From: a virus
Direction: 5' to 3' (one strand)
IMG/VR virus record: IMGVR_UViG_3300008262_000017
Coordinates: 1 to 64,000 of that record
DNA length: 64,000 nucleotides
Shown: positions 13,864-37,005 of the stretch, in pieces
How the letters are laid out: each line of letters opens with the position of its first letter
How positions within the stretch are numbered: position 1 is the first letter of the stretch
The notes under the pieces: model-generated
Told to the model about the DNA's origin: nothing
What the model saw: the letters and a program-made list of their open reading frames with translations, nothing else
Database searches by the model: none
Made by a program: the position numbers and the translations under genes

Positions 13864-14534
13864 AAGTTAAATTAGTATCTTATAGCAAGCCCACAGAGGA
13901 ATTTCAAAATCAAGACATTGAAGATGCTCTTGATCTTGTTGCATACTGTGCTCGTGTAAGTAATCCTGCTAATCAGTTCAATACAGAAACTAGTGAAAAA
14001 CTAATTAAGTATTTGATCAAACATCAACATTGGTCACCTCTCGAAATGGTTTCAGCTTGTATTGAAATTGAAACTACTAGAGATATTGCTCGACAAATTT
14101 TACGTCATCGTTCATTTAGTTTTCAAGAGTTTAGTCAACGCTATGCTGATCCTACAGCAGAATTAGGCGAAGCGTTTGTAGTCCGTGAAGCACGTTTTCA
14201 GGACACAAAGAATAGGCAGAACAGTGTTGAGTTTGATATGAACGACGAAAGCCAACGTTTACTGGCTATTGAATGGGAACGTGCTCAAAAGCGTGTGCTA
14301 TTTGCAGTAGAAAAAGAATACAAATGGGCTATTGCAAATGGCATTGCTAAAGAACAAGCTCGAGCCGTTCTTCCTGAAGGACTTACAGTAAGTCGCATGT
14401 ATATGAACGGAACTATCCGTAGTTGGATCCATTACATTAACTTGCGTAAGGAAAACGGAACGCAAAAAGAACACATGGAGATTGCTCAAGCATGTGCTAA
14501 GATTATTTCCGAAGTATTTCCTTTAGAAATTTAA
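13860..14534 (+). CDS. thyX: FAD-dependent thymidylate synthase
   Basis: ThyX motif RHRSFSFQEFSQRY; also HWSPLE, EQARAVLP, TQKEH. Confidence 0.95.
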   Translation: MKVKLVSYSKPTEEFQNQDIEDALDLVAYCARVSNPANQFNTETSEKLIKYLIKHQHWSPLEMVSACIEIETTRDIARQILRHRSFSFQEFSQRYADPTAELGEAFVVREARFQDTKNRQNSVEFDMNDESQRLLAIEWERAQKRVLFAVEKEYKWAIANGIAKEQARAVLPEGLTVSRMYMNGTIRSWIHYINLRKENGTQKEHMEIAQACAKIISEVFPLEI

Positions 14535-15491
14535 TTTAAATGTTTTATACAACCAATCGAAATCATTAATCCTATGAGTTTCGGTTGGTTGTGTTTCGGC
14601 AAATAGTTTACCTGCTACTGCTCCTGCAATAGCATATTCCCCAAACAATTTATCAGCGCCTTGTGTACACCATGTATCAAGGCGCTGTTCTGTTTCTTCC
14701 GTTACTTGTCTATTAATAGATTTGCTGGCTAATTTAACACATTCTCTAAATGCACTTTTCCATGTGTTAAAAGGATCTGTATTAAACGCTGTAATGTTGC
14801 TGGCGTTATCCATTATTTTAAAATTGTTACTGATACTAGTTGTCATATCAGTTGAACTAGTGTCCATACCTAGTGTTAGTTGTCTAGGTAAGAGTTTAAC
14901 TCCTCCATATCCGTATTCTAAATTATTAATAGGATTTTTACTTCTCCATACATGAACTGTTTCAGCGTCCCATGTAGGTACGTGATAGTCAAAGTTGAAA
15001 CTGTCTAATATTAAAGCATCACCGTCAACTACCCAGAATAACGGAGTATCAGATATTTCAGCTGCTTTTATATGAGCATTATGAATACCTTTAACTCCGT
15101 GTACTCTTTTAGCAGTAGGTTGTTTATCTTTTAGTGCTTGGAAATTACTGTCTGCATTAGGTTCGTTATAGCTTATAAAGACAATATCATAAATTTTAGA
15201 TTTTGGGGTGCTTGCTTGTATGTTCCATTCTTTGCGGGTAATCAAGAATCTACTATTAAATTCTCTTTCACTAACTGGTCGATGCTTACTCATTAACATA
15301 ATACCATCATAATGATCCCCGTTAAGAAATACATGATTCATTTTACGATCATATTCATTGTCATGACTAAAATAAATATCAAACTTAAAAGAAGGACTAA
15401 TGACGATATCATCAGGCACTACCCAAAACATCTCAGTTGGGGAATCTGTTAATGCTTTTAAATAATCTTGATAAGATTTAATTGACAACAT
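14523..15491 (-). CDS. GT-A-like glycosyltransferase (C-terminal part of an apparently frameshifted repeat protein)
   Basis: One repeat unit, then YDIVFISYNEPNA...RVHGVKGIH.AH...FWVVDGD (DxD)...YGYGGVKL...AFRECVKL; paralog of 30700..31590. Confidence 0.65.
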   Translation of the reverse strand: MLSIKSYQDYLKALTDSPTEMFWVVPDDIVISPSFKFDIYFSHDNEYDRKMNHVFLNGDHYDGIMLMSKHRPVSEREFNSRFLITRKEWNIQASTPKSKIYDIVFISYNEPNADSNFQALKDKQPTAKRVHGVKGIHNAHIKAAEISDTPLFWVVDGDALILDSFNFDYHVPTWDAETVHVWRSKNPINNLEYGYGGVKLLPRQLTLGMDTSSTDMTTSISNNFKIMDNASNITAFNTDPFNTWKSAFRECVKLASKSINRQVTEETEQRLDTWCTQGADKLFGEYAIAGAVAGKLFAETQPTETHRINDFDWLYKTFKLNF

Positions 15492-16776
15492 ACTGCTGAT
15501 ATGTTACAGGACCACTAGCAACAATATCCCACTCTTTACGTTCTAATGGAGTCCTATACTCTATTTCACGTTTGCTAAGAGGTTTGTTTTTACTGCAAAG
15601 GAAAATACCGTTGTAGCTGTCTTTATCTCCAACACGATGTATAAATGCATGTGTTTGACCTCTATCATAACTGTTGTGATGACTAAAATAAATGTCAAAC
15701 TCAAAATCTAAGGCTGTAGCAATGTTACGGCTTGTCATCCAAAACATCTCTGTTGAACTTCTTTCAAGTGCTTCTTGATATTCTTCCCATGAGTCAATGT
15801 AAAAAATATCGTACTTCTTAGGAACACTTGCAACAATATCCCAATCTTTTTTATTTGTTAAAAATCTGTACTTGAACTCTCTCTCACTTATAGGACTGTG
15901 CTTACTTAACAGCATTACTCCGTCATAGTGCTCACCATTTAAAAATACATGATTTGTCTTTCTATCGAAATCGTTATCATGGCTAAAATAAATGTTAAAA
16001 TCAAAGTTAGAATCTAACTTAACGTCATTAGGTATTACCCAAAATAGTTCAGTAGGACTCTTTTCTACCAGTTCTAAATATTGCTCATATGTAGTTACAA
16101 GTCCGCAATAGTTTTCATAGTTTTTAGGAAGGCTTGCTACAATGTCCCACTCTCGACGATGGATTGGAAATCTATGTTCAACTTCTTTCTTGCTTAATGG
16201 CTTATTCTTACTGCAAAGAAATATGCCATTGAAAAAGTTAGACACCGGAGTTTGATGTACAAATGCATGATTTTGATTTCTGTCATCAGTATTGTAATGG
16301 CTAAAGTACATGTCAAACTTAAAGTCAGCATGTGTTTCTAAGTTCTTACCGGTCATCCAAAACATTTCTGTTGTAGATGTAGTTAGAGCTTCTTGATATT
16401 CTTCCCAAGAATCAATATAAAAAATATCATATATTTTAGGAACACTTGCCTGTACATCGATTTCTTTTTTCTTAATAAAAAATCGATGCTTTAGTTCTCT
16501 TTCTGATACATTTGCATTTTTAGGAAATAAACAGACGCCGTCGTAGAACTCGCCATTTTTAAAAACGTGTGTATAAGGTCTGTCCCATTCTGGGACTTTA
16601 TAATCAAAATTAAAATTTAGATTTAGCTTTAAATCATCCCATATTACCCAAAACATTTTTGTCAAACTCATTTGTTTAGCTTGAGCAAAGTTATCAACTT
16701 GTTTTGCTAACGGAAATCTTATTTTTAATTTTTGATATTCGTCGTTACTTTTACCTACAAAAAATATATCGTACAT
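15478..16776 (-). CDS. Repeat protein made of degenerate GT-A-like units (N-terminal part)
   Basis: About four ~105-aa repeats, YDIF...T(E/K)MFW...FD.YFSH...H.F..G...G..L..K...S..E...R....E.DI.AS.P. Confidence 0.7.
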   Translation of the reverse strand: MYDIFFVGKSNDEYQKLKIRFPLAKQVDNFAQAKQMSLTKMFWVIWDDLKLNLNFNFDYKVPEWDRPYTHVFKNGEFYDGVCLFPKNANVSERELKHRFFIKKKEIDVQASVPKIYDIFYIDSWEEYQEALTTSTTEMFWMTGKNLETHADFKFDMYFSHYNTDDRNQNHAFVHQTPVSNFFNGIFLCSKNKPLSKKEVEHRFPIHRREWDIVASLPKNYENYCGLVTTYEQYLELVEKSPTELFWVIPNDVKLDSNFDFNIYFSHDNDFDRKTNHVFLNGEHYDGVMLLSKHSPISEREFKYRFLTNKKDWDIVASVPKKYDIFYIDSWEEYQEALERSSTEMFWMTSRNIATALDFEFDIYFSHHNSYDRGQTHAFIHRVGDKDSYNGIFLCSKNKPLSKREIEYRTPLERKEWDIVASGPVTYQQYVVN

Positions 16777-16782
16777 CGTTTA

Positions 16783-16814
16783 CCTCGTGATATAGTAATT
16801 ATCAACACAAGAGG
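16783..16814 (-). promoter_or_regulatory. Late-like promoter GATAATTA inside an imperfect hairpin that pairs with the GAGG RBS
   Basis: Minus strand reads CCTCTTGTGTTGATAATTACTATATCACGAGG-TAAACG-ATG. Confidence 0.45.
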
Positions 16815-16828
16815 GACATCAAAAAATT

Positions 16829-17875
16829 TTAGCTATAGTCGCCGTATTCATCATCTCTAACTGTGTCTAATGTAGCACAGTGAGGACCGCCGCTGAGTGT
16901 ACGACAATGACGCATTACTACAGGCATAATATCAAAACCGTTTCTTTCTAATTGTTTTATTAAACGAGTTTGTCTAGATTCTACTGCAACTAGTTTATCG
17001 CTAATGCTTAACACATTCATTCCTAACCAAGGACTAGCTGTAGCCCAATCTTTAACATAAGGAGTTTCAATAGGATCTTCGGACCAAATCTTTTTCCAAT
17101 TTTTAAAATATTCTGGTAAATTATTTTCGTTAACTCTACTAGGATTTAGCAATACTGTTCCTGCTGCCAAAGGAAGAATTGTAGTATCTACATGTACGTA
17201 GGCATAGATATTATCCATTACATGAACCTTATAGCGATCACCTAATGTACTCTGTAACCATTTTGCACCCATCCTATTGCCGCTGTTGCTAACAAGGTAG
17301 AATATATCCTTGCCACACTTAATGACATTAGCAGCATCAAAAGCTGGTTCAAAGTCTGTAAGTGTAGACTTACTTAGATCTGTACGATCATATAATGCAT
17401 CTAACAATTCACCTTTAGGAGCACTGATCCAACGACTGCCTGCGTTAAAGTAGTTCTTAAAAATATCTTTGTAAGCAAAGTTTTCAAAATACCTTGCACG
17501 TAAAGGCATAGGTGTTTCTATAATAGTGTCGCCTATAATTAGTGTGCTGTCTCTTGGGCAATAACCATAATAAGCATCTGTAGACCAATAAGGATTACTG
17601 TGTTGTGTAGCATAATCAAACACTTTAGGTCGGAGAACTTTAACACCTACAGACTCTAACTGTTTTTGAAATACATCTAAATCTTCTACAGTTTCTTCAA
17701 TAATCTGATCCGGATAATAACCTCCTGGCAATCCATTAACTATGTCGTAGTTAGCATAGTCTACACAATGTATGTCGTGTCTTTTAATACTAGGAACCTG
17801 TGCATATTCAGCACGACCTAGTATAACTTCTTTTAGTGTTCCCCACTCTGTATTTGAATTAGCTTTTAACATCAT
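16829..17875 (-). CDS. L-arginine amidinotransferase (glycine/inosamine-phosphate amidinotransferase family)
   Basis: EWGTLKEVILG, CPRD, FDAAN, HVDTT, LGMNVLS and catalytic GGPHCATLD. Confidence 0.9.
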   Translation of the reverse strand: MMLKANSNTEWGTLKEVILGRAEYAQVPSIKRHDIHCVDYANYDIVNGLPGGYYPDQIIEETVEDLDVFQKQLESVGVKVLRPKVFDYATQHSNPYWSTDAYYGYCPRDSTLIIGDTIIETPMPLRARYFENFAYKDIFKNYFNAGSRWISAPKGELLDALYDRTDLSKSTLTDFEPAFDAANVIKCGKDIFYLVSNSGNRMGAKWLQSTLGDRYKVHVMDNIYAYVHVDTTILPLAAGTVLLNPSRVNENNLPEYFKNWKKIWSEDPIETPYVKDWATASPWLGMNVLSISDKLVAVESRQTRLIKQLERNGFDIMPVVMRHCRTLSGGPHCATLDTVRDDEYGDYS

Positions 17876-19047
17876 TTATTAGATAACCTTGTATTTCCGT
17901 AATGAATAACATTCACACCTAGTATAGGTGCAAGTTTTCTGCATGTATCTATAACAACTGATCCTTTTGGCCAAATGATTTGTTCTACCCAATCTTCCCA
18001 ATAAGAAATTAGATAGACTTCAGCTTTAGGAAAAAAATTGTCCCCAGTGTTTAAATCGTAGTAATTTAAAAATCCGCCGTGTTTAGAAATGTAATGTCCA
18101 ACTAACATACTAGGAGATCCTACAGTTACATTTACTTTAGGTTTGTAACTTTTACCTACAATACAAACTGTATTGCCAAAATCTAAACATCGTTGCGCCA
18201 TTCTTTCAGCTTGAACTTCTCTGGATACAGAAATTGCTTCAAACAAATCATAACCCAAATCAAGTTTTTTAGACAAATATCGTTGTGCTATATTATCTCG
18301 AGGTTGGCAAGCGCCGCCTGCACCCATACCTGCTTTCATGTAACTAGCACTAGTAATCATCTTTGTAGATTTCATTAATGCATTTCCTACTACATCTACG
18401 TCAATGTTTCCATTAGATTCAGCTACATCTTGTATCATATTGATAAAGCTTAATTTCATACTGATAAATGTATTATAAAACATTTTAATACTTTCAGCTT
18501 CATCCCAAGTTCCTACTTCGTAACGAGGATTGTTTTCCATTAACGTCTTATAAAAATCAACTAGTACTTCAGGAGTAGATCCATCTTCTGTACCAATGAT
18601 AATCATTTCTGGATTTGCCATATCTTGTTTAACCGTGCCCATTGCAATAAGATAAGGGTTGTATACAAAGGTAGCATTTGGAATATATTTTATTAAATGA
18701 TTTCTTACTGTGCCAACTAATACTGTTGAAACTAATACAACTATTTGATTCTTATCGACATATTTGTTAATTTCAATTAAACAATTAATTACTGTATCAT
18801 ATAAAAAATCTCTAGGAGGTAAGTGACTAGAAGGAGTTTCTCCTCCATATTCTTTATCATGAGGAGTTGGTACAGCAATAAAGATTATGTCTTTTCCTTC
18901 TACTGCTTCTTTGATAGAATTTACCATTAAGAAATTTGCAGGGGTTCTCGGAACTACATCGTAGCCAACTACTTTATGTTTTGTAGCCATTACTTCGGCA
19001 CAATTAATACCTAAGTTTCCGCAACCAATCATTGATACATTTTTCAT
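17872..19047 (-). CDS. UDP-glucose/GDP-mannose dehydrogenase family, full length
   Basis: GCGNLG, FIAVPTPH, YNPYLIAMG, K.FYNTFIS.K, GGACQPRDN, and a C-terminal GKSYKP domain. Confidence 0.85.
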   Translation of the reverse strand: MKNVSMIGCGNLGINCAEVMATKHKVVGYDVVPRTPANFLMVNSIKEAVEGKDIIFIAVPTPHDKEYGGETPSSHLPPRDFLYDTVINCLIEINKYVDKNQIVVLVSTVLVGTVRNHLIKYIPNATFVYNPYLIAMGTVKQDMANPEMIIIGTEDGSTPEVLVDFYKTLMENNPRYEVGTWDEAESIKMFYNTFISMKLSFINMIQDVAESNGNIDVDVVGNALMKSTKMITSASYMKAGMGAGGACQPRDNIAQRYLSKKLDLGYDLFEAISVSREVQAERMAQRCLDFGNTVCIVGKSYKPKVNVTVGSPSMLVGHYISKHGGFLNYYDLNTGDNFFPKAEVYLISYWEDWVEQIIWPKGSVVIDTCRKLAPILGVNVIHYGNTRLSNK

Positions 19048-19055
19048 TTTTTATT

Positions 19056-20261
19056 TTAAAAGAAACATAGTTTCTTAAGCCTGTTATAAGATTCTTGAAC
19101 ATAGTTTTTTGATTGAAGTAAATTAAAATTGTGTTCAATTAAATCTTTAGATCTTTTTATATTTTCTATTTTTAGATCCCTACTTAATGACATCCATTTT
19201 GTTAGACTTAAATGAAATTGATAAAATCTAGTTATAGGATCTATTATCTCATCATAACTTTGATCTATTCCATAAAAATTAGTTTTATAACCTAGATCTC
19301 TAAAACATTTTAATATTCCAGGTTGTCCTAGAATCATAAAAGGGTGTCCTGCTGCTATAGGTTTAAAAGCCTTTTCTGTAATAAACATTCCAGAATAAAA
19401 ATATGAAGATTCTGTAATTACACTGAGTAAACTGTTTTTATAGATATTATGATTAAAAATTGCAGTGTCATCACCGTCAGGATTTACGTTAAACCATTTA
19501 CCGTCTACTGTTAATGGTCCTACTTCATCTAGCGTAGTCTTTATATTTTTATATGTAACATTATGAAACATAGGAACAAATTTAAAGTCCTTAGGAAGAT
19601 GGCCACTGACTAATCCTTTTTGATATTCTTTATTTTTAATTAACCGATACAAATGTTCTATTCTATGAGTTCTGTTGGTTCTGTTTAGACTGTTAAAATC
19701 TTTTGATTCTTCATTTTTTATAGCATCTAAACACAAAGGATACTCAGGAAATTTATTATCAAAATAATAAAAACATGTTAAAAAATAACAGTGCCTTATC
19801 ATCGGAGATTGATTATTTTCACAGCACCATTTATGATAATCTTGTTCAAAAAATAAATTCGCATCACCTACAATAACACTAAATTTAGGAAGACCTAATT
19901 TTTGCATTACTTTATGTATTCTGTCATATCCATCACATTTATCATATACCATCGGCCAACCTTCTCCTTGACCATTTAAGAATATTTTTAATTTTCCCTG
20001 TTTAGCTAGGTATAATGCATCTTTAGATATAAAATCTAACACATGTTTATCTGTATCGTTAATTTTTGACCATGCTCTAGAAACTCCAACACTTATGTTG
20101 TAAATTCCTTTTTCTTCAAAGTCAGATAATAATTTAGGTACAAATCCTGATTCTATCAATTGATGTTTAATAATGTTAATGTCATCAGCTACTGCATAAG
20201 GAAAATTAATTTCATTATACAAATTATTAACGGTTAAATCATCGAAGTAAGCAGGTATCAT
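19056..20261 (-). CDS. Putative glycosyltransferase, TEK..KPI family, paralog 1
   Basis: SVITES...FITEKAFKPI..GHPF...G....L...GYKT...IDQSYD; resembles a GT10/GT47-like C-terminal lobe (inference). Confidence 0.5.
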   Translation of the reverse strand: MIPAYFDDLTVNNLYNEINFPYAVADDINIIKHQLIESGFVPKLLSDFEEKGIYNISVGVSRAWSKINDTDKHVLDFISKDALYLAKQGKLKIFLNGQGEGWPMVYDKCDGYDRIHKVMQKLGLPKFSVIVGDANLFFEQDYHKWCCENNQSPMIRHCYFLTCFYYFDNKFPEYPLCLDAIKNEESKDFNSLNRTNRTHRIEHLYRLIKNKEYQKGLVSGHLPKDFKFVPMFHNVTYKNIKTTLDEVGPLTVDGKWFNVNPDGDDTAIFNHNIYKNSLLSVITESSYFYSGMFITEKAFKPIAAGHPFMILGQPGILKCFRDLGYKTNFYGIDQSYDEIIDPITRFYQFHLSLTKWMSLSRDLKIENIKRSKDLIEHNFNLLQSKNYVQESYNRLKKLCFF

Positions 20262-21769: not shown

Positions 21770-22680
21770 AATAGTTTGTAAATTTCTTTTGCGGCTTGTT
21801 CGTGTATTTCTGTGCCGGGATGAACTAAATCTCTTGCATTTATGTTAGCTGTAACATATATGTCTGCTCTATTAATGTGTGCCATATAATCAAAGTAACT
21901 TAAAGTTACATATTTGATTCCTCTACACATGGCTTTTACAGCTTTTGATATATAATAATTTTCACCTACTTCGTGATATCTGTTTATATATCTGCTTTCC
22001 CAAGTTTGAGATAAATTAAGTCCGTCTAAATATTCTTCTGCTACACCAGTTACTGTTTTAGAATTCCAAGGACCTATATCAAAATATCTATTTTTAAAAA
22101 AATGTCTATATCTATCACCGGTTGTCCAGTTTACAACAACAGCATAAGGGGTTGGAAATTTTTCCAAGGTTAGCGCACATAAATGTGAAATTAAACTATT
22201 TGAACCTCCAGATGTTCCAAGATTTACTACTTGTCTTCCTGTTGATTTTTCTATATAATATGCTAAAGTTTCATCTTCTGCTACTCCAACACCGTAGGTA
22301 TTAGAACATCCTAAAAGTAATATTGCATTAGGCCAATCTATATCATCCCATTCGTATGTTCTATAGCCACTAGAATTAACTTTATATTCCACTTGCTTAG
22401 TTAGATACTTCCAATCAGGCCCCATTTTAATTTTGTTACGCTCAAATTCTTTAGGACCGTCTGAACTGGACCAAATATTTAAAATATTTCCGCTATTGTC
22501 TCTATGTGTTAGACTGTTACAGAAAAATAAAGGATGTTCTTTATTATCTACATATCCAGGAAAATATGCAGGGTATTCAATTCCTTCCATATTTCGATGA
22601 ACTACTTCCATATGGAATTTTTCATCTTCTAGAAAGTGACGTTCACCGTCCCAGAAAACTTTTTCTTCGTATTTTTTCAT
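21766..22680 (-). CDS. SGNH/GDSL-like esterase or acyltransferase, paralog 1
   Basis: GCSNTYG (block I), VVNLGTSGGSN (block II), DLVHPG (block V). Confidence 0.65.
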   Translation of the reverse strand: MKKYEEKVFWDGERHFLEDEKFHMEVVHRNMEGIEYPAYFPGYVDNKEHPLFFCNSLTHRDNSGNILNIWSSSDGPKEFERNKIKMGPDWKYLTKQVEYKVNSSGYRTYEWDDIDWPNAILLLGCSNTYGVGVAEDETLAYYIEKSTGRQVVNLGTSGGSNSLISHLCALTLEKFPTPYAVVVNWTTGDRYRHFFKNRYFDIGPWNSKTVTGVAEEYLDGLNLSQTWESRYINRYHEVGENYYISKAVKAMCRGIKYVTLSYFDYMAHINRADIYVTANINARDLVHPGTEIHEQAAKEIYKLL

Positions 22681-27257: not shown

Positions 27258-27985
27258 AATTGGTTTCTGTTATCTGTAGGTAATCCGTTATCATCTATCC
27301 AATATTGGCTTCTATGAGGAGGATCATCTTGTTTGTATGTAGAATTACTTGTGTAGTAAAATAATCTAAAAGTTGTTCTTGGGGTTTCTACTGGGCACGC
27401 CAATGGCTTAAGATGTCCGTGCCATCCGTACTTATGATAGTTCCATATTAAACATCTATTAAATAGACAGTCAACATGTGTAACAGGCGCTTGTCTTTTG
27501 TCATCATAAAAATCTAATCCCCCGTTCCATTCAGGGTTCCAATTGGGAGTTAGATATATAATCAAAGAAAGTGCTCTGTGCAGTTTTAAACTGTCATTCC
27601 AGTTGAAATCAGTATGAAGATTAAGTACATCTCCAGGGAATGATTTACTATATCCTGCACCAATTAAATGTGGATCAGGAATAAGATTAGGAATACCGGT
27701 TAGATCAGATAGTTGTTTTAATACTTGAGAGCTATGCAAATAGTTTACAAGATTAAATGCAAGAGGAGCTAAATTAAGTTTGTTTAACTCCATCATGTGA
27801 CTTCCGTTCCTATTAAAAATTCTCCAATGCTCATCAGGAATAGCAAACATTTCATTGTATAATGATAGGGCTACATCTTTAGGTAGAAAATTATCAACTA
27901 CTCCCATCGGCCCTGGTTGTGCCGTTGTGTAATCGCTAGTTGTTTGAAAAACATTTTTTTCAAACATATCTGTTAACTTTTCCAT
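27254..27985 (-). CDS. 2OG-Fe(II) oxygenase (prolyl-hydroxylase-like)
   Basis: LHTDFN (HxD), IIYL.P.W...W.GGL, FNRC, WHG, R...R.FYY. Confidence 0.85.
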   Translation of the reverse strand: MEKLTDMFEKNVFQTTSDYTTAQPGPMGVVDNFLPKDVALSLYNEMFAIPDEHWRIFNRNGSHMMELNKLNLAPLAFNLVNYLHSSQVLKQLSDLTGIPNLIPDPHLIGAGYSKSFPGDVLNLHTDFNWNDSLKLHRALSLIIYLTPNWNPEWNGGLDFYDDKRQAPVTHVDCLFNRCLIWNYHKYGWHGHLKPLACPVETPRTTFRLFYYTSNSTYKQDDPPHRSQYWIDDNGLPTDNRNQL

Positions 27986-27986
27986 A

Positions 27987-29372
27987 TTACTCCTTATTAT
28001 TCAGTTGTTGGCACTCTTCAAAAAATGTAGTCATTTCAGGAAAAGTCTCTAAGAAATTTACATCTCTTCGTTTGTCATATTCCGTAAACCAGTTGTAAAA
28101 ATCTTTTCTACCTTCTAGTATTCTTTCTTCTGAATATGTTTTAGTAGCAAAGTAATCTCTTACACGTCTGAATCTTTCATATTCTAAATCGCTAAACTTA
28201 GTAGAATCATTTTCATCTAAGTTGTCTTTAACAAAATTTAAAATTTTATCAAAATAAGGAAGATATTCTTCCTTAGGTAAAATAAGCATGTCATATTGTA
28301 ATGGTTCTTTTAGATAAGGAATATCAAAAATAATCTTTCTAGTTTTAGAACTATCGTAAATGTCTTTGTATTTTGATCGCCATTCTAAAACTTTTTCTAA
28401 AAAAGAAACGTAACTGGTTACACTTAATATATTAAAGGTACACATAAAAGTTACAGGCCTTGCTGTTTTTCTAATAAACAGATCTAAGTTCTTTTCCCAT
28501 AATTCTAAATCAAGACCTGTACGTAGATACTCAGCACGTTTACCCCAAGTGTCCATACTTGAAAAAACTTTAAATTCTTTTATCTTATTGTTAGATAATA
28601 AATCATTTACATTGTCAGCTAACTTTTCAACCATTGCTGTTTTTACACCAAGGTTACTATTAATATTAAGTTCTAAATGAGGTTTAGGTTCTTCACGAAG
28701 TGTGTCAAATAATCTCCAAGTACTTTTATGCATTAACGGTTCTCCGCCGGTGATGCGAAGAATGTTTAATGTCTTAGACATTTCTGGCCACCATTTCCAC
28801 CAAGCTTCAATCCACGGATTATCTTCTTCTTGTTGAACTTTGAACCATTCAATACTGTTGCCGTGATTTTTTACTTTAGGGTAAGGACCATGCTGTTTGA
28901 TTTCGCTGTAGTAACTACTAGAGTGTTTAGGATGACAATAACCGCACTTAAAGTTACATTCGTTACTAAAACTAATTTCAATGTAGTCTGGATTTACATT
29001 AAGATCCCATCTGTTTGATGTTATTTCGTCTACCATTTCAGGTCGATACAATGCTGCATTACGAATGTGCCTATCACTGATATGATCACCACCTAAGTTT
29101 TCCACATTCCAACAGTACTGACAACCTTTTGGTTTTTCTCCTACTAGCATTTCAGCACGTTCTTTTTTCTTTTGAATAGTGTTGTGCAATGCGCTGGGAT
29201 TAGTTTTTAATTCAATTAACGGAATATCATGAGGTGCAGGATGATAGCAACTGTGCGTTTGTCCCATGTGCATATACATAGTTACATGATGCCATTTAGC
29301 CAAACAAAATGTAGGACTAATTTCATTTGTTATTTCTATAACTTTTCTAATTTTGTCTGTTTCTCGACTCAT
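27987..29372 (-). CDS. Radical SAM protein with N-terminal Twitch-like cluster, paralog 2
   Basis: CLAKW...HSCYHP...CQYCW; CNFKCGYC; TGGEPL. Confidence 0.85.
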   Translation of the reverse strand: MSRETDKIRKVIEITNEISPTFCLAKWHHVTMYMHMGQTHSCYHPAPHDIPLIELKTNPSALHNTIQKKKERAEMLVGEKPKGCQYCWNVENLGGDHISDRHIRNAALYRPEMVDEITSNRWDLNVNPDYIEISFSNECNFKCGYCHPKHSSSYYSEIKQHGPYPKVKNHGNSIEWFKVQQEEDNPWIEAWWKWWPEMSKTLNILRITGGEPLMHKSTWRLFDTLREEPKPHLELNINSNLGVKTAMVEKLADNVNDLLSNNKIKEFKVFSSMDTWGKRAEYLRTGLDLELWEKNLDLFIRKTARPVTFMCTFNILSVTSYVSFLEKVLEWRSKYKDIYDSSKTRKIIFDIPYLKEPLQYDMLILPKEEYLPYFDKILNFVKDNLDENDSTKFSDLEYERFRRVRDYFATKTYSEERILEGRKDFYNWFTEYDKRRDVNFLETFPEMTTFFEECQQLNNKE

Positions 29373-30703
29373 AGCTGTTTACATTTTTGCAAAAATTCAT
29401 TCATTTCAGGGAATGTATTTTGAAAACTTGTGCCTCTCCTTTTATCATGTTCTATAACAAATGCTGCAAAATCTTTTTGGTCTTGTATTTTAGATTGATT
29501 GTTTTTTACATGATTTTCAAATAATTTATAAATTCTTTCAAATCTATGAATTTCATGATCAAAAAACTCTCCAGACTTTATGTAGCTTAATTGATTATCA
29601 AAGTATTTAATAAAAGATTGATCCAGGATGAATATATTTTGATGAGGAGGCCATCTAAGATAAGAGATATCTAAACTTAGATTTTTCTTGTTATGCTGGC
29701 TTCTTAAATCTATCCAATCTTTTAAGAAATCTAAGTAACTTGTAACGCTTAATGCATTGTACGTTGACATTACAGTGAGCTTACCATTTGGTACTTCTTT
29801 TAAAAATTTATTACAATTTTCTTTCCACTCTTGATAATTAAGTCCAAATCTAATATATTCTGCGTTAGCACCGTGTGCCTCTGCACTAGTGTAAAGTTTA
29901 AAAGATTTTATTAAATTATTTTCTTGAATGAATTTTATCTTATCAATAAACTGATTAAAAATTTTAGAGGGTACACCTAAGTTACTATTAATATTAAGTT
30001 CTAAATTTGGTCTAGGATTTTGTATAATGTAGTCTAAAACTTTAAATGTGTTTTTAGTTAACAAAGGTTCGCCGCCAGTGATACGTAAAACTTCTAAACT
30101 AGGATATAGTGTAGGCCACCATTCCCAAAAAGCTTCAACATAAGGATTGTACTCAGATTCTGATACTGGCAATTTGTCCTGACTCTTTAACCATTCTAAA
30201 TTGTTAAAATTTGTACTGGTAGGATAAGCGCCATGTTGTTTAATTTCTTCAGTCCATTTTGAACTTGCTTCAGGACTGCAATAGCTGCATTTAAAATTAC
30301 AAGTGTTGCTGAAACTGACTTCTAAATAACTAGGATTATGATTTCCTAAAGGATTTGCAACAATAGAATCAATATGATTGATAGCCCAACTGTCTACACT
30401 TTTCATTATACGATCGCTGTACACATCTAAGGAGGTATCTTCAACCTTCCAGCAGTAATCGCATTCAGCTGGTCTAATGCCATCAATCATTGCTAATTGC
30501 TGTTGCTTTTTAAAAGATGTATTATGCAATGCACTTACATTTACAGCAATTTCATTTAGAGGAATTTTATGAGCTACAGGATGATGACAACTATGAGTTT
30601 GACCAGTTGCTAAATGTATTGTTACTTGCTTCCATTTAGCAACACAGAAACTAGGACTAATAAAGTTTAGTTTGTTTCTAAACTCATTAATTTTATCTTT
30701 CAT
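29369..30703 (-). CDS. Radical SAM protein with N-terminal Twitch-like cluster, paralog 3
   Basis: CVAKW...HSCHHP...CDYCW; CNFKCSYC; TGGEPL. Confidence 0.85.
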   Translation of the reverse strand: MKDKINEFRNKLNFISPSFCVAKWKQVTIHLATGQTHSCHHPVAHKIPLNEIAVNVSALHNTSFKKQQQLAMIDGIRPAECDYCWKVEDTSLDVYSDRIMKSVDSWAINHIDSIVANPLGNHNPSYLEVSFSNTCNFKCSYCSPEASSKWTEEIKQHGAYPTSTNFNNLEWLKSQDKLPVSESEYNPYVEAFWEWWPTLYPSLEVLRITGGEPLLTKNTFKVLDYIIQNPRPNLELNINSNLGVPSKIFNQFIDKIKFIQENNLIKSFKLYTSAEAHGANAEYIRFGLNYQEWKENCNKFLKEVPNGKLTVMSTYNALSVTSYLDFLKDWIDLRSQHNKKNLSLDISYLRWPPHQNIFILDQSFIKYFDNQLSYIKSGEFFDHEIHRFERIYKLFENHVKNNQSKIQDQKDFAAFVIEHDKRRGTSFQNTFPEMNEFLQKCKQL

Positions 30704-31590
30704 CTTTTTAGAATTCTATCCGTGTTGGTATAAACTCTTTTAAAAAATTTAGAACCTTCCTTGTCAATATTTGATATTTCTAAATCTAATTCAGTTTTAA
30801 GCTGACTGCTTAACCAGACACTGTAGTCATCAGGATCTGTTTTATCTTCATGTTTTTCTTTCCAATAATTTGTAAGATAGTCAAAATCTCTAACATTAGC
30901 ATAATCCCAATCTGTACAGTTTGTCATATAGCAGCCTTCTCTGGCTCCTAGCATACTCCAGATACCGTTCTCTACATCAGCACCAACGTTACACCATATT
31001 AACAAACGTTGATAATTTTGCCACCAAACACGTTTGATATCATCAGCTTTAGCGCCTTCGTTTAAACTCATTTTTACGCCTTCACGAAATCCTGCACGCC
31101 ATGCTTGAAATGGAGTTGCGTTTGTAAAACTCTCACTGTAGTTTTCGTTAAACTGATAATATCTGTTATCAAAACAAAACTCAACTAGTCCTTTATGATC
31201 ATTAGGATCTGAGTTTTCGTGAGTCTTCATTTCATTAACAAATTTTCGAGTCCATAACTTGAGGCCGCCATTTCCATACATTAGATGATTGACGTGTACT
31301 TTGCCGCACCAACTGAATACATGATTTTCAGTCAGTCCTAGTTCTTCTAAGTCTATTTCGACTTGAAAAAACTTAGGGTCAACAATATTGTCTGCGTCAA
31401 CTGTAACAAAATATTCAGTTTCGCTTTTTGCAGCACAGGCTTTATGTGCCGCATCACTGCCTTTAACTCCGTGAACACGTTTAGCCCACGGTACTTTTTT
31501 TACCAAGTCTGCATAATTTTTTTCTGCATTAGGCTCATCATAACTTAAAAATACAATATCTTGATCAACAACTTTAATCTTACTGGACAT
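30700..31590 (-). CDS. GT-A-like glycosyltransferase
   Basis: DIVFLSYDEPNA...RVHGVKG...VTVDAD (DxD)...YGNGG...AGFREGVK; start taken at MSSKIK. Confidence 0.65.
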   Translation of the reverse strand: MSSKIKVVDQDIVFLSYDEPNAEKNYADLVKKVPWAKRVHGVKGSDAAHKACAAKSETEYFVTVDADNIVDPKFFQVEIDLEELGLTENHVFSWCGKVHVNHLMYGNGGLKLWTRKFVNEMKTHENSDPNDHKGLVEFCFDNRYYQFNENYSESFTNATPFQAWRAGFREGVKMSLNEGAKADDIKRVWWQNYQRLLIWCNVGADVENGIWSMLGAREGCYMTNCTDWDYANVRDFDYLTNYWKEKHEDKTDPDDYSVWLSSQLKTELDLEISNIDKEGSKFFKRVYTNTDRILKR

Positions 31591-32170
31591 ATTTTTCCTT
31601 AACACAATAGTCTCTAAACTTTTTAATAGTATACACTGAAATATTTGAAAAATCTAGTTCCATATTAGAAGTAAACTCGAACGATACTGGTCCGTTAATC
31701 AAGTCAGTTGCACTTGCTATATATTCTGCTATCAAAAAACACGGGTTGTCTTTTTTACAAATATAAAAAGGAACGGTAGATACAATAGTTAATCTATCTG
31801 TTGCTTGAGACGTTGTAGTTGCAATCCAAACTTTTTCTTGTATGTTATATTCAAAAATTACATCACAATTTGTTAAATCTTTTTTTGGAATTTCATACAG
31901 AATATAATCAGTTTTTATAAGATCTTCTTGTTCCTCTGTGTCTGAAATAAGTCCTGCACTAATATTAAAGAAATAGTCAATTTTGTATTTTGTACAATCT
32001 TTAATGCCTCGAATAAAATTTGGAATTAAATGTATGCTAATTTCAAAATTATTTAAACTTTCATCTTTAACATTACTAGCCAAATAAACTTTACCGTCAT
32101 TATCATAATGTACAAAAAAACTTTTTACTTCATAGGCTTCTATGAAAGGTTTAACTATATCTTCTTGCAT
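31580..32170 (-). CDS. Hypothetical protein
   Basis: ORF overlap-coupled within the operon; no recognisable motif. Confidence 0.6.
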   Translation of the reverse strand: MQEDIVKPFIEAYEVKSFFVHYDNDGKVYLASNVKDESLNNFEISIHLIPNFIRGIKDCTKYKIDYFFNISAGLISDTEEQEDLIKTDYILYEIPKKDLTNCDVIFEYNIQEKVWIATTTSQATDRLTIVSTVPFYICKKDNPCFLIAEYIASATDLINGPVSFEFTSNMELDFSNISVYTIKKFRDYCVKEKYVQ

Positions 32171-32984
32171 AAGCACTTTCTAATTTTTTAATAAAATTTT
32201 CAGTTAAGAAACCTTCTTCTACATAATGCAACAATCCAGATTGTTGAAAATTTCCCACTTTTAAATTTAATTCATCATCTAAAAAACTGTTCAATACATT
32301 TGTCCATTTAGATGGAATATTTTTCCATCCTTGCACACCTGGTTTCATATGAATAAAAGAAGGAATTCCTCCTTTATCTACATGTGTACCCATAAATCTA
32401 AGAGCTAACGCGGCGCTAAGATCAATGCTACAAAAAGATTGGGCATGATTTTTTAAATGAATTCTATAAAATTTTTGCCAATGTACTACAATAATTTCAA
32501 GCCATTTGAAAAATTCATAAGCAGTATTTACTTTTCTAAAATAAAATGCTCCTGTGTAAATATTATCTAATCCGTTACGTGTGAATGATTTTCTGTAATA
32601 ATTGCTGTTAACAACATTACCTCTATAATCACGAACATGAGTAGTAAAACATAAATCTTTGTTTTCGAAATAATCCCACCAATGGTCATTACTTTCTAAT
32701 AACAACATATCAACATCATATACAATATTTTCTTCAAATGGAGTTGCATAGATTATCTTCCATCTGTTTTCAATTTTCCATTGAGTAGATGCAGCTGAAT
32801 CTTTCCATGGAATCGGAACTATGTGATCAAATACATATCTGTATTTTTCTGGAACTGAGTCGTTAGTAATAAGACAAGTTTTGTTTTCTTGATTATGTAT
32901 TTTAATAGACAACGCTAGTGCATAGGCTTGCTCAACATAATCTACGTCAGAATTTTGCGCTAAAAATACATGACCTTTACTCAT
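32151..32984 (-). CDS. GT-A (GT8/mannosyltransferase-like) glycosyltransferase
   Basis: Y...AYALALSIK, TPFEENIVYDVD (DxD), FIHMK, LLHY. Confidence 0.65.
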   Translation of the reverse strand: MSKGHVFLAQNSDVDYVEQAYALALSIKIHNQENKTCLITNDSVPEKYRYVFDHIVPIPWKDSAASTQWKIENRWKIIYATPFEENIVYDVDMLLLESNDHWWDYFENKDLCFTTHVRDYRGNVVNSNYYRKSFTRNGLDNIYTGAFYFRKVNTAYEFFKWLEIIVVHWQKFYRIHLKNHAQSFCSIDLSAALALRFMGTHVDKGGIPSFIHMKPGVQGWKNIPSKWTNVLNSFLDDELNLKVGNFQQSGLLHYVEEGFLTENFIKKLESAYARRYS

Positions 32985-33807
32985 TATCTAACATCCTTAT
33001 TAAACTATATTTGTTCATTACGTGAATGTCATTGTTAGAAAATTTCAAAGGCAGATAATCACTTTCTTTATTTTCATTTTCAACTAAAAAATAAAAATCT
33101 CTATCTTTTATCTTAACTAAAATATCTCTATCTAAAGTATAAAATAATTTGCCTGGCAAACGTTTTGCAAATTCTCCAGACGAATATCCGTTCATAATAT
33201 GAATTGCAATACTAAAAGCAAAATCATTTCTAAAACTTGAACTATTAAGATGAAATAAAAATTTGTAATATTGCCAATGCTGTTTAATATGAGATACTAA
33301 AGAAAAAAACTGAGCTGTTTCTTCAGTCTTTTTAAAAAAGAACACAGTAGCCCAGTAAAATGGAATAGAATAATCACTTAAATGTGTAAATTCACTTACG
33401 TCTTTTCTTTGGCCTATATCATAAAATTTATTATATATTAAAAAGTCATAAGGTTGATTCCAACAATAAGAAAGAACATTAGAGTTTATTACATAATCAA
33501 CATCTATTACAAGAGTCTCATCGTACGGGGACAAATCAAAACTATCATTTCTGTGAGAATTTTTCCAATGAGTTTTAGATATTTTGGCGCCGTCGTGAAA
33601 TCTTTTAAGATGATATTTCTCATTTTCAATAATTATGATGTTATCAAATAACAATTTATCATTTATTAACAAAGATGATTCTTCATCTGTAACTACAGAC
33701 ACTGGCACTTGTAAAAATTTATGTACTCTTTTAGCAGTATCTTCAGCTAGCTTTATATAATTAATTTCAGAATTATTTAAAGCAAATAACAACACACCTT
33801 TAGTCAT
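32977..33807 (-). CDS. GT-A (GT8-like) glycosyltransferase, paralog of 32151..32984
   Basis: KGVLLFA.N...NY, SPYDETLVIDVD (DxD), WATVFFF, RNDFAFSIA, HVMNK. Confidence 0.65.
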   Translation of the reverse strand: MTKGVLLFALNNSEINYIKLAEDTAKRVHKFLQVPVSVVTDEESSLLINDKLLFDNIIIIENEKYHLKRFHDGAKISKTHWKNSHRNDSFDLSPYDETLVIDVDYVINSNVLSYCWNQPYDFLIYNKFYDIGQRKDVSEFTHLSDYSIPFYWATVFFFKKTEETAQFFSLVSHIKQHWQYYKFLFHLNSSSFRNDFAFSIAIHIMNGYSSGEFAKRLPGKLFYTLDRDILVKIKDRDFYFLVENENKESDYLPLKFSNNDIHVMNKYSLIRMLDNE

Positions 33808-34156
33808 AAAGATCAATCAAACTTTCTATTTTACGCTGTTTGATTAATGAACTATGCTTGTTGTAATAAGCATTAGCTGATTCAAAATAAACTGAAACTA
33901 CCTTATCAAAAAAAGTTTTGAGATTTTCTATATTGACAGGGGTATTGTTATCATCTACTAAAACTACATTTTCTGTATAACCAATATCTAATAAAGTTTT
34001 AGAAAAATTAATCAATTCTTTCGAAGACGTAAAAGTTCCTCCATTTTCGTAATAGAGAAGACTTTGTAAAAATTCTTCATTTAAAATATTTTTTTGGCTA
34101 ACCAACGTAGCCATATAATTGGCATTATCAAATGCCTTTTGAACTCTTTCGTCCAC
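33800..34156 (-). CDS. Hypothetical protein, first gene of the enzyme island (possibly fibre-assembly chaperone-like)
   Basis: GTG start with AGGAG RBS; GGTF...VLVDDNNTPV; the chaperone idea rests on position only. Confidence 0.6.
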   Translation of the reverse strand: MDERVQKAFDNANYMATLVSQKNILNEEFLQSLLYYENGGTFTSSKELINFSKTLLDIGYTENVVLVDDNNTPVNIENLKTFFDKVVSVYFESANAYYNKHSSLIKQRKIESLIDLYD

Positions 34157-34161
34157 AAAAA

Positions 34162-34207
34162 ACTCCTAAGTTAATAGTACTATACTATTTTATCTTAGGA
34201 GTGTCAA
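34162..34207 (-). promoter_or_regulatory. sigma70-type promoter TTGACA-N17-TATAGT inside a 41-bp imperfect palindrome covering the RBS
   Basis: -35 at 34207-34202, -10 at 34184-34179; arms ACTCCTAAG (34162-70)/CTTAGGAGT (34194-202) and AATAGTA/TACTATT. Confidence 0.75.
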
Positions 34208-34225
34208 TGATTTAGGTAAAACTGG

Positions 34226-35287: not shown

Positions 35288-35299
35288 ATTACATCCTCC

Positions 35300-36970: not shown

Positions 36971-36993
36971 AAATCCTGTCTCCAATCTATATA

Positions 36994-37000: not shown

Positions 37001-37005
37001 TCTAA

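Follow-up and report, generated by a model that had tools for sequence, protein, structure and literature searches.

What does a giant phage do with a long run of sugar-processing genes beside its tail fibres, and which molecule do their products modify? The question is raised by a stretch of 64,000 nt, referred to here as the window, which is a fragment of a jumbo myophage genome from an uncultured freshwater giant phage. The baseplate of this phage resembles those of PA5oct, Atu_ph07 and RsoM2USA, and near-identical DNA turned up in 12 metagenome studies of lake, freshwater and estuary samples. An earlier note had read the locus as a candidate undescribed, tail-linked pathway of glycan decoration, with virion proteins or DNA as the acceptor.

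A soluble operon downstream of the fibre genes

In the ORF list of the window, the island comprises 19 ORFs at 14523-34156, all on the minus strand, as are the leader and the fibre-like genes described below. Overlaps occur at 15 of the 18 junctions, in agreement with the earlier description of about 19 co-oriented, mostly overlapping genes right after the fibres. With its tight overlaps and one leader, the island forms a single operon. Directly upstream lie four fibre-like genes (34226-42077) with matches to PHROG tail fibre, collar and virion proteins, which are candidate acceptors; the upstream neighbours also include the gene of a 4588-aa protein and baseplate genes resembling gp6, gp25 and gp5. 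Serine, threonine and asparagine make up 24-33% of the fibres versus 15-22% of the island enzymes. At its other end the island converges on a nucleotide-metabolism block that includes ThyX, FolE and QueE, where the gene DxD2 and the convergent ThyX gene share a 12-nt overlap. The G+C content of the island is in line with that of the remainder of the phage.

As the earlier note had claimed, the island proteins include no flippase, no polymerase and no membrane segment; no hydrophobic 19-mer reaches 1.6, the maximum being 1.49. Its further claim, that this is not a captured O-antigen or capsule locus, agrees with the lack of membrane proteins, but the host's lipid-linked glycans are still compatible as a target. 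Overall, a soluble multi-enzyme operon for sugar-donor synthesis, transfer and tailoring is supported.

A conserved core of glycosyltransferases

The core, located after the fibre genes, consists of four glycosyltransferases, two GT8-like and two GT2-like, and two small proteins. One of the small proteins, u118 (33800-34156), found no match in family profile searches; its homologs in relatives (35-54% identity) keep the same position, as does gene 354 of RsoM2USA. Next comes G8a (32977-33816), a GT8 (glycogenin-like) glycosyltransferase by profile match, with invariant residues D90, D92 and H253 and with syntenic counterparts in relatives (gene 353 in RsoM2USA). Its GT8-like paralog G8b (32151-32984) matches GtfB weakly in NCBIfam (E 2.4e-4), and a joint profile of the two matched glycogenin GT8 (E 4.3e-5), the DxD motifs coinciding in the alignment. 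The other small protein, u198 (31580-32176), evolves fast and gave no lead in family or fold searches; between G8b and DxD1, 92 of 99 loci have a single homologous ORF (~165-217 aa).

DxD1 (30700-31605) is the most conserved core gene and brackets the variable slot on the left. Its predicted fold (AF2 model, pLDDT 83) is that of a GT-A (GT2-like) glycosyltransferase with a C-terminal helical domain. Foldseek placed the SunS/ThuS S-glycosyltransferases at the top (E 5e-5), with PBCV-1 A64R among the matches, and the comparison with GT2-type enzymes gave a VIA Z of ~10 over ~140 residues. The motif D70-x-D72 is invariant, and identity in 80 relatives is 72-79%. The right bracket, DxD2 (14523-15491), is a GT-A paralog sharing 33% identity with DxD1 (E 2.5e-31) and 45% with RsoM2USA gene 348, and it is found downstream of DxD1 in 78 of the 80 relatives. 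While DxD2 is built from one repeat unit and a catalytic domain, the adjacent Rep432 (15478-16776) holds four degenerate copies of that N-terminal unit without the DxD motif, recognisable by internal similarity and by similarity to DxD2. In many family members, a single catalytic domain is joined to as many as 16 such units, and the split into Rep432 and DxD2, without an indel, also occurs in independent metagenome contigs.

A variable slot of donor-sugar, transfer and tailoring enzymes

The slot adds three GT-B transferases. T3 (26073-27257) is assigned from its predicted fold (AF2 model, pLDDT 94) and belongs to an unannotated phage family, in which 0 of 223 homologs carry a Pfam domain. Foldseek matched it to GtfA, OtsA and SdgB (E 1e-6 to 1e-4), and T4 beta-glucosyltransferase ranked 38th among its GT-B fold matches. 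The paralog T2 (23705-25090), which was taken into alignment A3, shares the C-terminal donor-binding half with T3 (BLAST, 40% identity over 129 aa, E 7e-23) and has another N-terminal half. T1 (19056-20261) is a third member of the type, with BLAST matches to T2 (38% identity, E 2e-18) and T3 (27% over 225 aa, E 6e-17). Folds, profiles and BLAST together bear out the earlier estimate of about seven transferases falling into three types; the GT-A/GT2-like and GT8/glycogenin-like types have two members each, and GT-B has three. The enzymes proposed before for donor synthesis are backed by Pfam and PHROG. An SDR nucleotide-sugar 4-epimerase-like enzyme (25069-26076; PF01370, E 8e-44) has UDP-glucose 4-epimerases as its best PDB matches (E 4e-42), followed by MoeE5 and UDP-GlcA decarboxylase, and a UDP-glucose/GDP-mannose-type nucleotide-sugar 6-dehydrogenase (17872-19047; PF03721 and PF00984) matches phrog_9148 (E 3.5e-84).

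The tailoring set includes three N-terminal-twitch radical SAM proteins of NF033640 (N_Twi_rSAM; cut-off 170 bits), a family for which no described reaction was found in the literature searched. Of these, rS444 (29369-30703; 333 bits) is an extra paralog in the present phage, 41% identical to RsoM2USA gene 349. The copy best conserved in relatives is rS461 (27987-29372; 312 bits), whose homologs (56-74% identity) adjoin DxD1 in many of them; homologs of rS503 (20258-21769; 310 bits) lie at the module's far end in relatives (66-70% identity). B12-radical SAM enzymes also occur in relatives. A 2OG-Fe(II) oxygenase of the prolyl-hydroxylase type (27254-27985; PF13640, E 9e-11) is paired with T3, and this pair recurs by itself in many other viral contigs. 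The oxygenase keeps an invariant HxD...H...R, and the PDB entry nearest to it in sequence is that of a HIF prolyl hydroxylase (E 0.04). Pfam, PHROG and NCBIfam confirmed the three radical SAM enzymes and the oxygenase listed in the earlier note.

The amidinotransferase on the same list also stands. The enzyme (16829-17875) is L-arginine-dependent and StrB1-like, and aligns over its full length with inosamine-phosphate amidinotransferase (PDB 1bwd; E 3.8e-102, residues 8-341 on 7-340), the active-site motif GGPHCATLD aligning with GGFHCATLD in StrB1. Its Pfam match is weak, and its PHROG family is phrog_25854. Domain searches of the island found no aminotransferase that would supply it with an amino-sugar. 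The two SGNH enzymes that had been proposed are better called SGNH-like, the assignment coming from conserved S-G-N-H blocks and a language-model lead, with no match to Pfam or PDB sequences. In SG1 (21766-22680), block V reads R-D-x-x-H-P-G; SG2 (22677-23705) has the blocks G-C/D-S, N-x-G, G-x-N and H-P, the Asp of block V being absent, and its language-model neighbours carry the names SGNH/GDSL.

Synteny and the island promoter

In ~100 metagenomic relatives, as well as in the cultured Ralstonia phage RsoM2USA, the fibres are followed by the core in the order u118, two GT8, u198, DxD1 ... DxD2, and the slot between DxD1 and DxD2 varies from 0 to ~27 kb. This is clearly the pattern that the earlier note had proposed to look for, a conserved core by the fibres and a variable enzyme set. 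T1-UGDH-AmT is a rare accessory sub-module absent in most relatives, whereas all of them share the core of four transferases. The accessory module of one 93%-complete relative is found ~35 kb away from the DxD pair. Homologous clusters of DxD, twitch radical SAM and GT2 genes are also present in Bdellovibrionota chromosomes without fibre genes.

The leader of the island (34157-34225) carries a sigma70-like promoter within a hairpin. The promoter, TTGACA-N17-TATAGT at 34207-34179, has 11 of 12 matches and is the best promoter-like site of the region. The hairpin (-16.9 kcal/mol, z -2.4) holds an AGGAG ribosome-binding site in its 3' arm and is followed by a U-run. Among relatives, 43 of 65 u118 leaders contain a TTGAC-N15-19-TAnnn(T/A) site, which no fibre-gene leader has, and the u118 leaders are strongly structured (mean MFE -17.4 versus -9.9 in shuffles). 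A different motif, AATAAATA, precedes fibre and baseplate genes, for example at 37001 upstream of the fibre gene f561. Because the conserved island promoter differs from AATAAATA, co-expression with the fibres is unsupported. Expression of the enzymes appears to start from a host-type promoter of the island itself, separately from the late fibre genes, and an early function, on the host surface or on DNA, fits this promoter as well. The earlier term 'tail-linked' holds for the position of the island, but its own promoter and the Bdellovibrionota clusters speak against more than that.

Comparison with described systems

The claim that the pathway is undescribed was too strong, for both comparable islands (PMC7029224) and sugar clusters (PMC7824862) have been reported. 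Islands of glycosyltransferase and radical SAM genes adjacent to fibres are already known as the 'host recognition cluster' (HRC) of pelagimyophages and cyanomyophages, a hypervariable island by the tail-fibre genes in the structural region (Zaragoza-Solas et al. 2020, PMC7029224). The likeness extends to GT8, UDP-glucose 6-dehydrogenase and radical SAM cassettes gained or lost between close relatives. The HRC phages are T4-like phages of SAR11 or cyanobacteria, whereas the present phage is a jumbo myophage with a PA5oct/Atu_ph07/RsoM2USA-like baseplate, and in its island six genes form a defined core, with two paralogous GT-A genes on either side of the slot. Jumbo cyanophages such as P-SSM2 carry sugar or 'capsular polysaccharide modification' clusters (Iyer et al. 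2021, PMC7824862), which are similarly large, contain SDR epimerases and several glycosyltransferase families, and are polymorphic between related phages. Those clusters hold sugar kinases and nucleotidyltransferases, both absent here, and are read as host O-antigen modification; unlike them, the present island is radical-SAM-rich and fixed beside the fibres.

Soluble viral glycosyltransferases and donor-sugar enzymes acting in the cytoplasm without a lipid carrier are shared with virion glycosylation machineries, namely the PBCV-1 capsid glycosyltransferases (A64R), the mimivirus fibril clusters and the mycobacteriophage capsid/tail systems. There the virion glycan is proven experimentally, whereas here it is predicted from genes. 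We know of no twitch radical SAM or amidinotransferase genes in these clusters; the present island has three NF033640 paralogs (310-333 bits) inside a glycosyltransferase operon. The amidinotransferase shares with StrB1 an end-to-end alignment and the conserved active-site Cys motif, but its phage context lacks a cyclitol pathway. Coupled hydroxylase-glycosyltransferase pairs include the Skp1 prolyl hydroxylase with Gnt1 and the collagen lysyl hydroxylase-glycosyltransferase, the latter also in mimivirus. The oxygenase adjoining T3, in a pair that recurs as a unit, may be compared with these by analogy.

The acceptor

We tentatively favour the reading that the island is one operon for cytoplasmic glycosylation and glycan editing, the acceptor most likely being a virion-exposed structural protein of the phage, either the fibres or another protein of the virion surface. 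The dehydrogenase and the epimerase would provide uronic-acid donors, and the transferases would assemble a short hetero-oligosaccharide on an acceptor that is conserved. The oxygenase may hydroxylate an acceptor site for its partner transferase, and the SGNH-like, radical SAM and amidino enzymes would edit the sugars through acyl groups, C-H chemistry and a guanidino group. If the acceptor is such a protein, the exchangeable content of the slot would set the surface chemistry of the virion. DxD1 is 72-79% identical among relatives and the fibres only 27-54%, which suggests an acceptor that is conserved and independent of the host. Among the closest solved relatives are enzymes that modify proteins (glycogenin, SunS/ThuS, PBCV-1 A64R, GtfA, SdgB and HIF prolyl hydroxylase). 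The likeness to protein glycosyltransferases is non-specific at the level of the fold, since enzymes acting on lipids, sugars and DNA have these folds too. We counted the recurring pair of 2OG oxygenase and GT-B transferase, the lack of membrane segments and the phage-like G+C content in favour of a virion protein, and the promoter difference, the Bdellovibrionota clusters, the displaced module and the missing aminotransferase against it.

Many O-antigen glycosyltransferases are soluble and have no membrane segment, so the lack of membrane proteins is compatible with action on the host's lipid-linked glycans. The transferases might thus modify such glycans (LPS core, O-antigen, capsule or another surface glycan) at the inner membrane face, using the host's flippase and polymerase, and the altered surface of the infected cell would keep other phages out. 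For aquatic and jumbo phages, clusters of GT8, UGDH and radical SAM genes beside the fibres have been interpreted in this way (PMC7029224, PMC7824862); the sigma70-like, early-type promoter suits a role soon after infection, and the chromosomal DxD, radical SAM and GT2 clusters of Bdellovibrionota suggest a cellular acceptor. We nevertheless regard envelope remodelling as rather unlikely, since a DxD1 conserved far above the fibres and common to a Ralstonia phage would be odd for strain-specific host glycans, the oxygenase is of a protein-hydroxylase type, and the island lacks an initiating phosphoglycosyl transferase, a ligase and any membrane-anchored part.

The close relation of the amidinotransferase to StrB1 of streptomycin biosynthesis brings to mind a free aminoglycoside-like or nucleoside-like guanidino molecule that, during infection, would target the host or competitors. 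The radical SAM enzymes, the B12-radical SAM enzymes of relatives, the oxygenase and the several transferases do resemble a natural-product cluster, and 'antibiotic synthesis' or secondary-metabolite clusters in cyanophages are mentioned in PMC12801897 and PMC7824862. Such a product is improbable: domain searches of the island found no cyclitol or amino-sugar synthase, aminotransferase, exporter or resistance gene, and the amidinotransferase belongs to the rare sub-module rather than to the universal core. DNA hypermodification, in which the transferases would glycosylate a modified base and the other enzymes edit its sugar, shielding the genome from host nucleases, would agree with the early-type promoter, the convergence on nucleotide-metabolism genes and the presence of T4 beta-glucosyltransferase among the GT-B matches; phage DNA glycosylation is known (bioRxiv 10.1101/2023.12.21.572611). 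We consider it very improbable here, as the oxygenase is not of the TET/JBP type, the window contains no hydroxymethylase-type ThyA homolog, and a ThyA-family gene is present in just two of five large relatives, where it scores as an ordinary thymidylate synthase, and absent from the 93%-complete relative. To our knowledge, seven transferases together with GT8 enzymes are also atypical of DNA systems.

For the favoured virion-protein acceptor, virion glycosylation in mycobacteriophages offers a precedent, as cited in PMC12619734. The abundant virion bands of RsoM2USA do not include the core homologs (PMC8504454), which argues solely against the core proteins being structural themselves. The proteins detected in virions of cyanophage S-SCSM2R by proteomics include an amidinotransferase and one that resembles prolyl hydroxylases (PMC12801897).

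Genomic setting of the island

The window is the leading 64 kb of an IMG/VR viral contig with a length of 92.4 kb, for which CheckV estimates a completeness of 25%; this implies a genome of the 300-400 kb class. Upstream of the island, the minus strand carries gp5-, gp25- and gp6-like baseplate genes, a single ORF of 4588 aa (42753-56519, between the gp6-like baseplate gene and the fibre genes) and four fibre-like genes. With its counterparts in jumbo myophages, e.g. PA5oct, Atu_ph07 and SCTP-2, the gp6-like protein shares about 37% identity, and the baseplate is nearest to that of PA5oct/Atu_ph07-type jumbo phages. The giant ORF has its counterpart in gene 361 (7.6 kb) of the cultured Ralstonia phage RsoM2USA, the product of which was detected in RsoM2USA virions (PMC8504454). 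Twelve metagenome studies of lake, freshwater and estuary sites contained near-identical DNA, and the whole island was covered piecewise by independent contigs at >=99% identity. Joints between metagenome contigs, with sides of 20-41 nt, link paralogous genes and were taken as relatives or repeats.

Elsewhere in the window, on the plus strand, a truncated second nucleotide-sugar dehydrogenase-like gene (2553-3362, 269 aa, without the C-terminal domain) adjoins a GTP cyclohydrolase I gene (3414-4112) and a QueE-like gene (5889-6752). The latter two suggest a 7-deazaguanine pathway; QueC, QueD and DpdA were not recognised among their neighbours.

Gene content of the island

The earlier note described about 19 co-oriented, mostly overlap-coupled genes. 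Indeed, 19 minus-strand ORFs run from 34156 to 14523, with overlaps at 15 of the 18 junctions, and the first begins 69 nt past the last fibre-like gene. At the far end, the last gene, DxD2, and the convergent gene ThyX share 12 nt at their 3' ends (14523-14534), leaving no space for a terminator between them.

The donor-synthesis and tailoring classes assigned at first reading were borne out by family searches, which recovered a UDP-Glc/GDP-Man-type dehydrogenase, an SDR epimerase, three radical SAM proteins and a 2OG oxygenase. The best matches of the SDR protein were UDP-hexose 4-epimerases (E 4e-42); MoeE5 and UDP-GlcA decarboxylases ranked lower. The oxygenase is of the PF13640, prolyl-hydroxylase type. 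The amidinotransferase gave a weak Pfam match, yet it aligned over its full length with StrB1, an enzyme of streptomycin biosynthesis (1bwd, E 3.8e-102), and with AGAT at E 1e-54; its catalytic Cys motif, GGPHCATLD, aligned with GGFHCATLD in StrB1. All three radical SAM proteins belong to the NCBIfam family NF033640 (N_Twi_rSAM), in which they scored 310, 312 and 333 bits, the cut-off being 170, and their translations show a CNFKC-x-YC motif with further Cys residues upstream of it. A single-sequence PDB search with one of the three genes returned nothing, and nothing was found in the literature on 'N-terminal twitch' radical SAM enzymes; the N-terminus of a twitch radical SAM homolog from Bdellovibrionota matched the SPASM Pfam model.

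The claim of two SGNH enzymes was sustained in part. Conserved Ser, Gly, Asn and His blocks were found (S26, G111, N117 and H322 in an alignment of 27 sequences), but neither Pfam nor PDB gave a sequence match, a PDB profile search of the family having returned nothing meaningful, and the block V Asp (DxxH) occurs in the SG1 group only. We therefore speak of SGNH-like proteins (SG1 and SG2). A language-model comparison pointing to SGNH/GDSL was treated as a lead.

Twelve island ORFs had no match in Pfam or other family searches. For ten unassigned ORFs, Pfam at E values up to 10 yielded no usable match; for u198, a protein of the core, the protein atlas yielded none either, and the stored model was poor. 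No Pfam match to a flippase, polymerase, ABC transporter or membrane-bound initiating transferase was obtained among the island ORFs. In agreement with the earlier reading, no candidate membrane helix occurs in any island protein, the maximum 19-residue hydropathy being 1.49. By these features the island does not resemble a bacterial O-antigen or capsule locus.

The repeat protein Rep432, which lacks a DxD motif, directly precedes DxD2, and their stop and start codons overlap out of frame (15478-15491). In most members of the DxD family, repeats and catalytic domain make up one protein, with up to 16 units and up to 2164 aa. An assembly error was considered and rejected as the origin of the split: two independent assemblies (X4 and X9) cross the junction without an indel. 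The split is natural.

Fold assignment of the transferases

Since 12 ORFs had no family, the claim of about seven transferases of three types required evidence at the level of folds. Models of DxD1 and T3, together with sequence comparison for the others, support it: DxD1 and DxD2 would be GT-A proteins, G8a and G8b GT8-like, and T1, T2 and T3 GT-B proteins.

An AF2 model of DxD1 (30700-31605) built from 50 homologs reached a pLDDT of 83. Its best Foldseek matches were the peptide S-glycosyltransferases SunS and ThuS (E 5e-5), with PBCV-1 A64R also listed. VIA gave Z scores of about 10 to GT2-type enzymes, with an rmsd of 3.1-3.6 A across 137-142 residues, and nucleotidyltransferases of the same fold followed just below (Z 8.4-8.8). 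The D70-x-D72 motif is invariant among homologs. DxD1 is thus modelled as a GT2-like protein of GT-A fold with a DxD motif. DxD2 (14523-15491) is its paralog (33% identity, E 2.5e-31). A PDB profile search of the DxD family gave no meaningful match. The joint profile of G8a and G8b (277-279 aa) matched glycogenin, a GT8 enzyme, at E 4.3e-5 over the N-terminal 115 positions only, with the DxD aligned; in the sequence alignment D90-x-D92 and a distal H253 are invariant.

For T3 (26073-27257), the AF2 model had a pLDDT of 94 and a pTM of 0.91. Foldseek returned 104 PDB matches at E<=1e-3, of which those listed were GT-B enzymes, the nearest being GtfA, OtsA and SdgB. In its model, T3 is a GT-B protein; a PDB profile search of its family gave no meaningful match, and tblastn found no T3 homolog among GenBank phages. 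T1 and T2 share the C-terminal half of T3 and differ in the N-terminal half.

A conserved core brackets a variable slot

The earlier note had proposed synteny as its own test, expecting a conserved core beside the fibres and a variable set of enzymes. This is what we observed, both in IMG/VR relatives and in RsoM2USA. Megablast of the island against GenBank phages gave no match, and RsoM2USA was the only GenBank phage with homologs. Behind its giant protein and fibre genes, genes 354 to 348, all annotated as hypothetical, encode in order u118, two GT8-like proteins, a 184-aa ORF, DxD1, a twitch radical SAM protein and DxD2, that is, a minimal core plus one twitch radical SAM gene.

DxD1 homologs were found on more than 599 IMG/VR contigs, and the DxD family as a whole, when clustered at 90% identity, forms more than 8000 groups, and at 50% it forms 1650. 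In the best 80 of the more than 599 contigs the order is invariant: fibres, u118, G8a, G8b, a u198-like ORF, DxD1 and DxD2. Of 78 loci, 62 have less than 150 bp between DxD1 and DxD2, a distance which we call the slot; 13 have 0.4-0.7 kb, made up of extra N-terminal repeat units, and three have 7-9 kb. The slot measures about 15 kb in the window phage, and in two relatives of larger size about 19 and about 27 kb. One 331-kb relative, 93% complete, has its accessory module about 35 kb from an almost empty DxD pair.

Contigs with filled slots were found through a search seeded with the T3 family. Many of them share the order of the window: DxD1, the radical SAM gene rS461, the 2OG oxygenase, T3, the epimerase, T2, SG2, SG1, the radical SAM gene rS503, in some cases a repeat protein, and DxD2. 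Relative to this order, the window has a third radical SAM gene and a block of T1, the dehydrogenase and the amidinotransferase as extras. In relatives, the slots contain, in addition, short dehydrogenase-like genes as well as radical SAM enzymes of B12-binding and other types. Taken together, the slot lengths and gene orders indicate that a conserved core with variable enzymes is real, and that the window island is mid-sized and no outlier.

Further types of radical SAM gene were seen in relatives' slots (L147:7539-9464, L147:2278-3249 and L094:15926-16993), one of them coding for a B12-binding protein of 641 aa. Separately, the prolyl-hydroxylase-type 2OG oxygenase and a T3-type GT-B gene form a stand-alone pair in many viral contigs without the rest of the island (loci L107-L110, L121-L127, L131, L133, L135 and L141).

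The island has its own promoter-like signals

The only sizeable gap at the island head (34157-34225) contains the best sigma70-like site of the region, TTGACA-N17-TATAGT, within a hairpin whose 3' arm includes the ribosome-binding site. Among relatives, TTGAC...TAnnn(T/A) lies upstream of u118 in 43 of 65 cases and upstream of no fibre gene, and the u118 leaders show an unusual degree of structure. On the plus strand, perfect sigma70-like sites were found before ATPase and nucleotide-metabolism genes as well. In the leader of the RsoM2USA homolog the sigma70-like site is absent and the hairpin is different.

A second motif, AATAAATA, has just three sites on the minus strand of the window (37001, 42722 and 60036), each 10-30 nt before a structural gene (the fibre-like f561, u203 and the gp6-like gene). 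It precedes 33 of 37 f561 homologs, as against none of 65 u118 homologs. It resembles TATAAATA of T4 and may be the late-promoter motif used in this phage clade. These sequence signals suggest for the island a transcription unit of its own, of the host-RNAP (early or middle) class, outside the adjacent late-type fibre unit. The description of the island as tail-linked thus stands as to its fixed position after the fibres, but not as to co-transcription with them. We accordingly dropped co-transcription as an argument for virion glycosylation, with which an own promoter is still compatible because enzymes made early can act late.

Candidate acceptors

A virion protein is the acceptor that we tentatively prefer, as a possible rather than a probable one. 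This reading draws on the fixed position after the fibres, the conservation of DxD1 (72-79%) while the adjacent fibres are 27-54% identical, the lack of lipid-carrier machinery, and the protein-modifying enzymes among the nearest solved relatives together with the prolyl-hydroxylase type of the oxygenase. We also count in its favour the virion proteome of a cyanophage, in which both an amidinotransferase and a prolyl-hydroxylase-like protein turned up (PMC12801897). The early-type promoter and the existence of homologs in bacteria would fit remodelling of the host envelope or surface as well, which is how such islands have been read in print (PMC7029224, PMC7824862); we consider it unlikely. 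Phage DNA as the acceptor has little in its support besides the promoter class and the nearby nucleotide-metabolism genes, and is the least probable of the readings considered: the oxygenase is of PF13640 type and not TET-like, no hydroxymethylase is evident, and no enzyme making hydroxymethyl bases is found in the island (a ThyA-family gene occurs in two of five large relatives). A search for the Tet_JBP family gave no match, in its controls either, and is given no weight here. The likeness of the amidinotransferase to StrB1 would suit a free metabolite as the product, but the scaffold synthase, aminotransferase and exporter are all absent, and we hold this to be very improbable.

Returning to the virion surface, a more specific and quite unlikely version can be put forward. 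Tail fibres, or further proteins exposed on the virion, would receive on hydroxylated residues a guanidino-bearing, radical-SAM-edited uronic-acid oligosaccharide. The bracket formed by the paralogs DxD1 and DxD2 would serve as a scaffold on which phages exchange tailoring cassettes by recombination, so that the surface is diversified independently of fibre sequence. If true, adsorption or evasion of host defence would be diversified through virion surface chemistry, apart from the fibre sequence.

Relation to known islands and bacterial homologs

The earlier note presented the island as a candidate undescribed pathway. This could not be upheld, since fibre-adjacent islands of such kind are already published (PMC7029224, PMC7824862). 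Zaragoza-Solas et al. described in pelagi- and cyanomyophages a fibre-adjacent, hypervariable 'host recognition cluster' (HRC) with GT8, UDP-glucose dehydrogenase and radical SAM cassettes (PMC7029224), and Iyer et al. polymorphic sugar clusters in jumbo phages (PMC7824862). Like the HRC, the window island lies in the structural region beside tail-fibre genes, varies strongly in gene content between related phages, and carries GT8-like glycosyltransferases, UDP-glucose dehydrogenase and radical SAM cassettes. The HRC, however, sits between VrlC and gp14 in a T4-like (Tevenvirinae) genome, whereas the window baseplate is of another affinity, nearest PA5oct/Atu_ph07-type jumbo phages. With virus-encoded virion glycosylation systems the island has genes for soluble glycosyltransferases and donor-sugar enzymes in common. 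Twelve radical SAM genes have also been reported from one T4-like marine genome (PMC5332604). The 'moraphage' paper describes four core glycosyltransferase groups (PMC12619734); no link to the window clade was established, and the lineage, with Bacteroidota hosts, appears different.

We thus rate the window island as belonging to an already known, functionally unsolved kind. Fibre-adjacent glycosyltransferase/radical-SAM islands are widespread in aquatic phages. What the present case adds is an anatomy (a six-gene core, a bracketed slot, and an own promoter contrasting with the fibre motif), fold-level assignments for three formerly unannotated protein families, the DxD and T3 families among them, and, in RsoM2USA genes 348-354, a cultured, tractable minimal model. 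Because RsoM2USA is cultured and has the core, the question of what such islands decorate is open to bench test. The case would also set NF033640, an uncharacterised family of radical SAM enzymes, in its first reaction context.

Large contigs of predatory Bdellovibrionota, reaching 3 Mb in length, carry homologs of the DxD proteins with 31-47% identity; in many cases a DxD2-like gene and twitch radical SAM genes come next. Clusters of DxD, twitch radical SAM and GT2 genes occur at L195, L204 and other loci among L170-L198, and one cluster adjoins dnaB and includes three GT2-family transferases. The partnership of DxD and twitch radical SAM proteins therefore predates its link to fibres. Other nominally bacterial DxD matches (52-76% identity) carry phage fibre genes. 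Fibre genes with the core cassette were seen in MAG bins assigned to Flavobacteriales, Bifidobacterium, Neomarinimicrobiota, Rickettsiales and Pacearchaeota (L163-L169, L178, L180 and L184); these are probably mis-binned phage contigs.
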